NCBI GenBank assembly: GCA_963514005.1
Contig: OY740821.1
Span: forward strand, 13,950,001-14,014,000
From: Raja brachyura
Taxonomy: Eukaryota
Direction: 5' to 3'
Length of the DNA stretch: 64,000 nucleotides
Part shown: in pieces, positions 26,301-29,300 of the stretch
How the letters are laid out: each line of letters starts with the position of its first letter
Position numbering within the stretch: position 1 is the first letter of the stretch
Translations under genes and position numbers: made by a program
Notes under the pieces: model-generated
Told to the model about the DNA's origin: nothing
The model's input: only the letters and a program-made list of their open reading frames with translations
Database searches by the model: none

Positions 26301-29300
26301 GCCCCAGCCTGGGAGGATGCCTTTACATTCTTTGTTCAGAATCCACAGCAACAGGAGCTGGATATACAGGTAATTTCCATAAACTTACCAGAAGTGACAA
26401 AAGCAGTTTTTGTGCTAACTGTAACTTAGCAACAATCTGGGTTTTGCCTTCAGTATTGCACACTTGCAGGAGGTTTGAATGGTGTCAAACATTGTTTCCA
26501 ACAGCTCCTTTGAGCTTTGGATTTTGGATTTCACTGTGAGTACATCACTGTAGAAATGAAACCATTTACATAGCCTCTAACTTAATAAAATGGCATACAG
26601 CATTTTGCAAGAGCTAATGAGACCAGTTCCACTTACCACATTACCCAGAGTTAAGTTTTAAAGAACATCTTAAAAAGAAGGCAAATTGGTTTAGGGAGGG
26701 CAATTCCAGATCTTAGGATCAAAGCAGCTGAAAGTACAGCTGCCTGCGGAGGCTTAATTTGGGCGTGTGCAAACCACGTAAAACAACATTGATGCAACTT
26801 TAAATGAAAGTATGACACAGAACAGGAAAAACTAGGCTTTGAAAGACTGAAATGCACCACAGGAGTTGATCACTGAAGCAAACACCACTGTTTGGAATGG
26901 ACAGTCTGAAGAAGGGTCTCGACCCGAAACGTCGCCTATCTCCTTCGCTCCTTAGCTGCTGCTGCACCCGCTGAGTTTCTCCAGCTTTTTGTGTAACCCT
27001 CGATTCTCCAGCATCTGCAGTTCCTTCTTTAACTGTTTGGAATGGACTTTGAGCCTTTTCAGTGCAAAAGGCATTACGGAGGGGAGGGGATTTTTTAATG
27101 TAAGTGAATTTCTTCGAACCAGCAGAGCAAGAATAGCCCTGAGGAAATTCTTGGCTACTATCCTTGCTTGAGAGTCAGTTGGAAGGGTTTAAATAAAAGG
27201 AAGAAGGGAAAGGGAAACTGGTGCAGACAGCTTGACACTGCCCACTGTAATATTTCAAACTCCAGTTGCATGGTGTGTAAGAGGAGGGATGTAATAATTC
27301 CAAAATATTCCATTTCTAAAACTAATTTTGGCCATTGAACAAGACTTAAGACAAAGATTGAAACTAGGATAACAGTGAAAGAAGTAGATTAAAAAAACAT
27401 TACAGCCTGCACGTTCAGCATTTTGGTTAAATCTGTCCATCTGATTTTCATTTCTAGGTTAAAGATGATGACCGTCAGCTGAGTCTGGGATCCCTGTCCC
27501 TGTCTCTGTCCCAGATTCTGATGAGCCCAGATATGACCATTGATCAGTGGTTCCCACTAGAACATTCTGGACGTAACAGCCAAATTTATTTGAAAATCAT
27601 AATGCGGGTGAGTGAACGGGCAACTTTTATACAAAGACAGTCTATGGATTGAAGCTAAAGAAACGGTGCTGGCACTGATACCAGGAATAATCCGCCATCT
27701 GACTACAGAATTGAAGAAGGAAAAGTGAGAAAATAGAACATATGGATACATATTGTCATTCACTGTCTGCACAGTAATGGAGTGCCCACCAACATAGAGT
27801 CTATGTGACTCATTCCAGTGATTTCAGTGAAGATCCAGGTGGGGTGATGCAGCCATAAAAGGAAGGGTGATGCATTTTGCCCAAGAACGTTATGTGCAAT
27901 GCACCCCTTTCCCGTTTATCTTTTTTCCATGTTTTTATTTTCATTCTGTGTTGTTCTTCATTGACTGTAGGGCTATTTTTTTTAATTCTGTTTCCGTAAC
28001 AACTTAAATTTGAAATATTTTAAGTTTGCTGCTTTGTAAGATTAAAGATATTTGTATTATTTAACGTACTGTTTAACTTCTGCTTAAAATTCAAATTTGA
28101 ACTGCTTGAACTCATTTTTTGAATTGTGTTAAATTAGGACACAAAGAGATTATGTTGAAGAAGCCAGCTCCTATGCACCCTTGTGTGTATCACCTACCCT
28201 TCCCCTCCCTTACTTTCTCTTGTGCCGTTTCTACGTGCACCATTGGCCTCTCGTAACGGTTTCACATTCTAGTTGGTGGGGTGTGTAGAAGTGAAAAATG
28301 CAGAAAAGAGGAAACATCCTCCATAACAATTTTCACTGAACAAAGGTATAAGAAGGAACTGCAGACGCTGGTTTAAACAGAAGATAGACACAAAAAGCTG
28401 GAGTAACTCAGCGGGACAGGCAGCATCTCTGGAGTGAAGGAATTGGTGACATTTCGGGTCAAGACCCTCCTCAGACTGAACGTCACCCATTCCTTCTCTC
28501 CAGAGATGCTGCCTGTCCCGCTGAGTTACTCCAGCTTTTTGTGTCTATCACTGAACAAAGGTGCCTTCTTAGATTTGAAATAGGACTCAATTAATTGTTG
28601 CACATAAATTACTTTGCTCTATTTAAATAAAGCAAAGTAAATCAGGCACCACTTTACTTCTCTGCCATCTTTTACCATTGTGTGTTTGATTGGCAGGTGC
28701 TTGTTCCCGATGCTATTGATCTTGAGAAAATTCCCAGAGCTCGGAAATCTACAATGGACAAAGTGCCGGGGTCATCCAAGCCTGACAAGATAAATGCGAC
28801 TACTTCTAAGTTAGTGGAGGCCTCTGGATTCGGGGGTCTGATTCAAGTTCCCTTACCAACTGAAAGCAGTGCTCCCTGCAGTGTGGGGACTGAGGTATGG
28901 GCCGCTTTATATTTCCACATGAGTAAGCACTTGCTATTGAGGTTCGTATAGATCAGGCTGAAGCTTATGTCAATGGAATATCATTTATCAACATGCTTGA
29001 CTACCAGCGTTTGATTTTGATTTCTAGCCTTGACATTTAAAATGGCGTCACAAGAGGTGTCCCAATAGCTGCGGTGAGATAATAGATTGCAGGGATGGAT
29101 TGATTTATGGTGATTTATTGATTGCAAGGATTGAGTGAGGTTTGGTTAATGGGAATAGATTGATTGATTGATGGGTGTTGGTTATGGTGATTAATTGATT
29201 GCAAACATTTGTAGAAAAGGAACATAAAAGGAATTTGCATTAAAATCATAGGTAATATGTGGAGAAATGTGAGGTTATCTACTTTGGTGGCAAGAACTTG

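Follow-up and report, generated by a model that had tools for sequence, protein, structure and literature searches.

The window analysed here, the whole stretch of 64,000 nt of Raja brachyura DNA, carries plus-strand coding stretches for C2 domains at 22466-22645, 26274-26372 and 30336-30515, which we take to be parts of a multi-exon host gene resembling extended synaptotagmin. Since these stretches lie to both sides of the insertion studied here (26903-27031), the latter is likely intronic and in sense orientation. As the initial annotation had proposed, it is flanked by a 16-bp target-site duplication (TSD), the direct repeats at 26887-26902 and 27032-27047 being exact; in the family to which it belongs, TSDs measure 9-17 nt with a mode of 14 (n=49 copies). 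Positions along the element are given as q, with q1 at window position 26903. Since q130-131, the next element bases, are the same as the first two bases of the right TSD, the 3' boundary can be placed only to within 2 nt. Between its TSDs the insertion is a solo unit without tandem hammerhead units, and the 64-kb window holds 12 related arms. A large, partly decayed inverted repeat at 57176-60586 is unrelated to this family. The features are as follows.

26887..26902, plus strand: left TSD copy, 16 bp, exact direct repeat
26903..27031, plus strand: insertion, very probably the terminal repeat and tail of a Penelope-like element (q1-129), from genome copies
26903..26905, plus strand: insertion 5' end, at the start hot spot q-2..q8 (mode q2); 5' strand of stem I
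26906..26913, plus strand: hammerhead core C3-A9 and the extra A between A9 and G10.1, from sequence and descriptor
26914..26925, plus strand: stem II, 4 bp, with a tetraloop that varies among copies
26926..26933, plus strand: GAAA, loop-less palindromic stem III (26929-26932) and GUC triplet, from sequence, with the architecture of PMC4209133
26934..26999, plus strand: remainder of the terminal repeat, to the short 3' end (about q96-98), from arm ends
27000..27033, plus strand: tail of ~34 nt, to the long 3' end (about q131-133), from exact tail copies and arm ends
27023-27031, plus strand: segment predicted by folding to pair with the hammerhead core
27032..27047, plus strand: right TSD copy, exact direct repeat
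635..824, no strand assigned: young head-to-head pair of the same family, from window comparison
28349..28545, no strand assigned: older head-to-head pair of the same family, from window comparison
41281..41381, plus strand: young tail-less stub, the second match of the hammerhead descriptor

The minimal type I hammerhead core described in the initial annotation is present, with CUGAAGA at q4-10, the extra A between A9 and G10.1 at q11, GAAA at q24-27, a stem III reduced to the loop-less palindrome ACGU at q27-30, and a GUC triplet at q29-31 whose position puts the predicted cut at 26933|26934 (q31|32). Stem I consists of the two pairs it had been credited with (U3-G32 and G2-C33), and at what would be the third pair 80 of 116 copies have an A.C mismatch. 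One detail has to be revised: a stem II of 5 bp would leave a 2-nt loop, and it is therefore better read as 4 bp (q12-15 with q20-23) closed by a CUCG tetraloop. The q15:q20 pair shifts from U-A to U.G in 12/116 copies, and the loop is variable. All of the extra nucleotide at 9/10.1, the G10.1-C11.1 pair, the core boxes and the palindromic helix III, by which minimal type I motifs are recognised, are found here; the helix I of 4-5 bp that is usual in such motifs is absent (2 bp). A minimal-hammerhead descriptor had two matches in the window (at 26906 and 41284) and none in 200 mononucleotide shuffles, while an Rfam search of 25000-29000 returned no match to the hammerhead model at E<=10.

Membership in an autonomous Penelope-like element

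Very probably, the insertion comes from an autonomous Penelope-like retrotransposon of Neptune type, whose terminal repeat and tail it comprises. A genome search returned copies identical to it along their entire length; 8 of 30 loci extend upstream into a common UTR, and one of them (L002) runs on as far as a GIY-YIG-like endonuclease frame. In the complete element L031, the order is q20-129, a frame of 1203 aa, about 230 nt of UTR, and q1-104, so that the repeat is joined to a reverse transcriptase (RT)/GIY-YIG frame and the Penelope-type origin suggested earlier is borne out. The frame matches RVT_1 (E=2e-4) and GIY-YIG (E=0.0016), both below the Pfam curated cut-offs, and carries RT motifs, a CX2-5CxxC linker between RT and endonuclease (EN) at residue 1070, and an endonuclease cysteine motif at residue 1110, with the histidines judged by eye. 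Frames of 1190-1250 aa were counted by hand in 22 of the 150 matches listed, and the GIY-YIG-like frame of L002 as a query yielded 133,948 first-look candidates in the genome. A PDB sequence search gave no match. Structurally, we find what is expected of EN+ Penelope-like elements (PLEs), namely a pseudo-LTR (pLTR) or partial tandem, an inverted 5' partner, a tail of 30-40 bp and a TSD. By the criteria in the accessible parts of Craig et al., the element would be an EN+ PLE of Neptune/Nematis type, the clade being assigned by motif.

The initial annotation had viewed the insertion as one of a distinct SINE- or retrozyme-like lineage. The 20-mer diagnostic of the window copy occurs in 23 of 30 loci (one of them the window itself), and 6 of these 23 have element UTR upstream. 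Short and long copies carry their haplotypes in equal proportions (Fisher p=1; three diagnostic sites): of 100 tail-bearing copies, those with the main haplotype comprise 31 edge, 18 inner and 19 long ones. As both the diagnostic variant and the haplotypes are common to short copies and to copies bearing ORF or UTR sequence, a separate lineage is not what these data describe. Junctions, moreover, vary from copy to copy, each insertion having its own.

The family has been recently mobile, as had been supposed, and it is abundant. A 36-nt tail query had 18,020 exact matches in the genome (reversed control: 0), and 864 kb chosen by position held 248 arms of all ages, amounting to 24.7 kb or 2.9% of bases, which extrapolates to roughly 775,000 arms in the genome. 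Matches are locally dense: about 70 exact tail matches fall in the 2.6 Mb of G000:C1 from 3.8 to 6.4 Mb, roughly four times the genome mean (6.7 per Mb). At least four head-to-tail element copies with a period of 3965 bp were seen at L253-L256 (G000:C18:46359882-46375076), with further tandem element pairs among the ORF-bearing loci listed. The older copy L013 has about seven 66-bp tandem units of q24-95, with most of the hammerhead missing.

Where copies start and end

Two samples of copies were used to map the ends. The first takes the tail matches on contig C1 in consecutive order, up to the hundredth, regardless of their 5' side. The interval q-2..8 holds the starts of 49 of its 100 direct arms, at a rate of 0.059 per nt, which drops to 0.003 per nt over the 11 nt immediately upstream; one of these 49 (L167) is an artefact of an older UTR. 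The region of the predicted cut, q30-34, holds 1 of 88 starts. The second sample is a non-overlapping 1.26 Mb picked by position, with the window copy included, both arms of pairs counted, and two rows that look like one duplicated segment. Of its 69 young arms, 39 have their start within q-2..8, including 19 at q2, and none of 65 starts lies at q30-34. Older copies likewise start at q0-5. An exact TSD of at least 9 nt was found in only 10/32 simple edge copies, or 15/34 with mismatches allowed. On the other side there are two fixed 3' ends, at about q96-98 and q131-135. Close to half of the copies (45/100) have an inverted arm, with the head at q-3..9 in 24/45; the outward end is at the short site (at or before q104) in 35 of 38 inverted arms, and 29/38 abut a TSD. 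Among ORF-bearing copies (n=30), 7 start at the hot spot, 14 reach the upstream UTR (4 of these from one tandem array) and 9 start at q20-132; with so few starts at the hot spot, there must be templates of greater length or a jump between templates. Tail-less copies were expected to be long more often, which is not the case in the 1.26 Mb (8/31 vs 5/13, p=0.48).

Several causes of the hot spot, or of apparent breakpoints near it, were considered and set aside. Breakpoints at q-150 to -217 arose where the alignment failed in a C-rich tract, and they were merged. Ribozyme cleavage is at odds with the start counts at q30-34 (1/88 and 0/65). Splicing was suggested by a pyrimidine tract followed by CAG at q0-2; TSD-bounded copies retain the would-be intronic AG, and the sole donor-like motif in the 500 nt upstream is at q-476. 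In longer copies, the hot-spot 5' end (q1-3) sits in a context that resembles the initiator consensus. Divergent UTRs upstream of q1 (L002:1470-1503, older subfamilies) mostly retain the pyrimidine tract, a CTGAC-like motif and CAG, and this conserved tract resembles a splice acceptor and an initiator alike. In D. virilis, an intron ends at the corresponding hammerhead position, with the start well upstream and the intron between (PMC2377424, PMC4209133, in the parts available).

Some individual junctions deserve mention. In L231, on the minus strand, the TSD and q2 are separated by eight additional bases that match the tail end in reverse complement, which would fit a switch of RT to the start of its own cDNA. 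Tandem restarts of the head (about q1-38, then q-1 to q6), sometimes with an extra G, are seen in L095, L178, L186 and run X19. The short 3' end of the youngest subfamily, q92-98 (26994-27000), is like one C-strand unit of the vertebrate telomere repeat, and this could be due to chance; both 3' ends have TAAC in common, and older subfamilies are without the telomere-like form.

The base preceding the copies carries a further signal. A G precedes 18 of 32 simple copies that start at q2 (p=0.001), or 13/24 once loci picked by similarity are left out (p=0.01), compared with 15/53 at starts other than q2, where 15.6 are expected; starts at q1 have it in 8/21, no excess. Masters with G at q1 make up 5/71 UTR-bearing copies, and allowing for them gives p=0.03 and 0.055. 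T is likewise raised at the position before q2, and the window copy itself has no extra G. In the contigs of one run, G is the last inserted letter in 9 of 10 internal restarts among the matches listed; this material consists of assembled contigs, most of them only guessed to be RNA, and speaks to neither ends nor expression, while their loose ends near q0-2 may partly reflect other UTR variants. In LINE-1, an extra G marks the junctions of capped full-length copies (PMC11702581, accessible part). The excess of G before q2 is thus suggestive of a cap, short of proof.

Conservation and predicted folding of the ribozyme

The motif is intact in 52/69 young copies vs 24/116 in an age-mixed set. 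The initial annotation had named a core no more conserved than its flanks as one of the outcomes that would speak against a working ribozyme, and this is what we find: compared with the downstream flank, the core shows no higher conservation (p=0.84), in a set of 116 of 161 matches that were detected by their downstream part, which biases the test of the core. At the level of subfamilies, variable columns number 2/12 in the core vs 19/60 downstream (p=0.25; tests p 0.2-0.3), and the difference between the core and other motif positions (p=0.014) is confounded by truncation. The changes seen are CpG decay, loop II substitutions, U-A to U.G and GUC to GUU, with no two-sided (compensatory) change among the 116 copies. 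As a pattern of substitutions they are compatible with function, and neither core conservation nor covariation lends catalysis clear support.

In folding predictions, stem II has a probability of <=0.01, and the active dimer is placed at -6.7 vs -19.7 kcal/mol for the preferred fold, so the active hammerhead fold is predicted to be disfavoured. In published systems, minimal motifs cleave weakly and as multimers only (PMC4209133; for cleavage of dimers, PMC5785218 as cited in PMC6765202), and the Anolis motif requires protein and is dispensable for insertion in vitro (PMC11167929), as stated in the parts of these sources at hand.

Proposed copying mechanism and comparison with known systems

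Our preferred reading, to which we give a probability of about 0.7, is that the insertion is the hammerhead-bearing repeat and tail of a Neptune-type PLE, produced by run-off on uncleaved, probably capped RNA; the run-off mechanism, taken on its own, seems to us somewhat better than an even bet. The front edge of the motif, and not the predicted cut, is where about half of the young copies start, which makes it likely that the stubs are run-off products of uncut RNA. The element's own enzyme would nick the target, and RT would begin at the tail site (q131) and run off the 5' end of the probably capped, uncleaved RNA about 130 nt upstream. The hot spot would then be the RNA 5' end, with transcription starting at q1-2 and a cap likely in place, and head-to-head pairs may form when both target strands prime, one per 3' site. 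Longer copies would stem from a longer template or from a jump to the 3' repeat. The ribozyme would stay inactive during this step; should it ever work, it would probably require a dimer partner or the element's protein. The window copy itself is likely a dead-end by-product in a likely intron. In the Anolis element, both strands are cleaved and RT primes at two internal sites on both strands, with the RNA unprocessed (PMC11167929, available part).

We also propose, tentatively, that the stubs could be integrated 'strong-stop' cDNAs, from a capped RNA that would start with the first hammerhead base, carry the ~100-130-nt repeat at both ends and have its ribozyme silenced by the tail. RT would prime inside the 5' repeat and reach the cap, and the resulting cDNA would integrate as a stub. 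Alternatively, a second cDNA would be joined head-to-head, or the cDNA would transfer to the 3' repeat, as the first strand does in retroviruses, and so regenerate the pseudo-LTR. The tail would pair with the ribozyme, silencing it until the tail is copied. We did not find a PLE 5' hot spot, a strong-stop model or this family in the literature listings searched; Repbase, Dfam, subscription papers and bioRxiv supplements may describe them.

The same element could also have a hot spot that is not a transcription start, if its RNA began upstream and was trimmed, or its copying halted, at a folded or protein-bound domain based at q2. Folding offers a candidate for such a domain: q5-13 is predicted to pair with q121-129 (probabilities 0.77-0.88, -12.4 kcal/mol), an energy reached by 12/1000 shuffles in the last 18 nt, and for the youngest subfamily a predicted helix of q2-14 with q120-131 would close a 130-nt unit and mask the core, with a G2-C131 pair (p 0.49) that coincides with both insertion ends. 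The upstream UTR in 14/30 ORF copies fits as well. Yet 134/1000 shuffles reach this energy somewhere, the ORF holds stronger partners than the tail, the overall fold has a z-score of 0.18, and an RT block would be expected at the 3' edge of the helix. In older tails the pairing is weaker (mostly -3 to -10), yet older copies start at q0-5 too, and the extra-G excess is left unaccounted for; we regard trimming or pausing as unlikely. Slightly less likely still is cleavage at q31|32 in vivo that leaves no scar, RT jumping the break or the RNA being religated or circularised, in which case head-to-head pairs could come from self-priming on an antisense template. Cleavage with ligation (PMC4209133) and antisense self-priming (PMC3846280) have been proposed in the accessible parts of these papers, and the motif changes are of CpG type, in loop II, or such as retain pairing or the NUH rule. 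What such cleavage does not account for is the q2 hot spot, and it has to contend with the folding values (-6.7 for the active dimer vs -19.7 kcal/mol, stem II <=0.01) and with Anolis ribozyme mutants that were without effect on insertion (PMC11167929, part available).

It is less probable again that an independent SINE- or retrozyme-like family of ~130 nt has been copied from short masters, its RNA processed by the ribozyme. Fixed ends, the very large number of copies (248 arms in 864 kb) and an intact motif in 52/69 young copies could all be read in this way, some stubs could be transcribed from a start at q1-2, and PLE-derived retrozymes are described in vertebrates, one chondrichthyan included (bioRxiv 10.64898/2026.07.22.740005, available portion). 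Such a family should have a private haplotype, which is absent; the window copy is solo and not tandem, the ends avoid the cut site, and each insertion has its own junction.

The interest lies in the family more than in the single copy. Hammerheads in PLEs, PLE-derived retrozymes, tails, and stubs that are solo or on opposite strands have all been described before; since the motif and its Penelope-like link are published, the window copy is ordinary. The family, with roughly 3% of the sampled DNA, intact autonomous frames, sharp ends and no scar at the predicted cut, is a record of mechanism. The regeneration of the pseudo-LTR was called unexplained in PMC2377424 (accessible part), and a mapped q2 hot spot with a possible cap signature makes the copying mechanism of PLEs directly testable. 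If sense-strand intronic motifs could cleave, host transcripts would be affected, but nothing in these data points to such cleavage.

Minimal type I hammerheads are known from the pLTRs of metazoan PLEs (Cervera and De la Pena 2014, PMC4209133), and in the available parts of that paper they share with ours the core boxes, the extra nucleotide at 9/10.1, the G10.1-C11.1 pair and the palindromic, loop-less helix III, as well as a mostly dispersed occurrence, either singly, from truncated elements, or in pairs on opposite strands. Helix II has 4 bp here vs 7-8 in Schistosoma, and helix I has 2 bp, as in D. virilis, vs 4-5 in Schistosoma; terms for cartilaginous fish are absent from the two supplementary files of that paper that were searched. 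With the EN+ Neptune/Nematis PLEs, as accessible parts of bioRxiv 2021.04.23.441226 present them, the element has in common a single RT plus C-terminal GIY-YIG frame, cysteines between GIY and YIG, the CX2-5CxxC linker shared by Neptune and Nematis, a pLTR, an inverted 5'-truncated partner and a 30-40-bp tail on one end; it differs in its very high copy number and in that young insertions are mostly stubs from one hot spot. As in Poseidon PAc of Anolis carolinensis (Frangieh et al. 2024, PMC11167929), two 3' ends define the tail, the hammerhead lies upstream of both, and no ends fall at the cleavage site. The ORF of PAc starts within the hammerhead, whereas the first ATG here is at q164, about 130 nt downstream of the cut, and a 5' hot spot is not reported in the available part of that paper. 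The non-LTR retrozymes of Li, Clavereau and Pollet (bioRxiv 10.64898/2026.07.22.740005) are likewise derived from PLE pLTRs, carry a type I hammerhead and include dispersed monomers; in the portion of that work available, they are defined by tandem units, whereas the window copy is solo, TSD-flanked and inseparable from the autonomous element.
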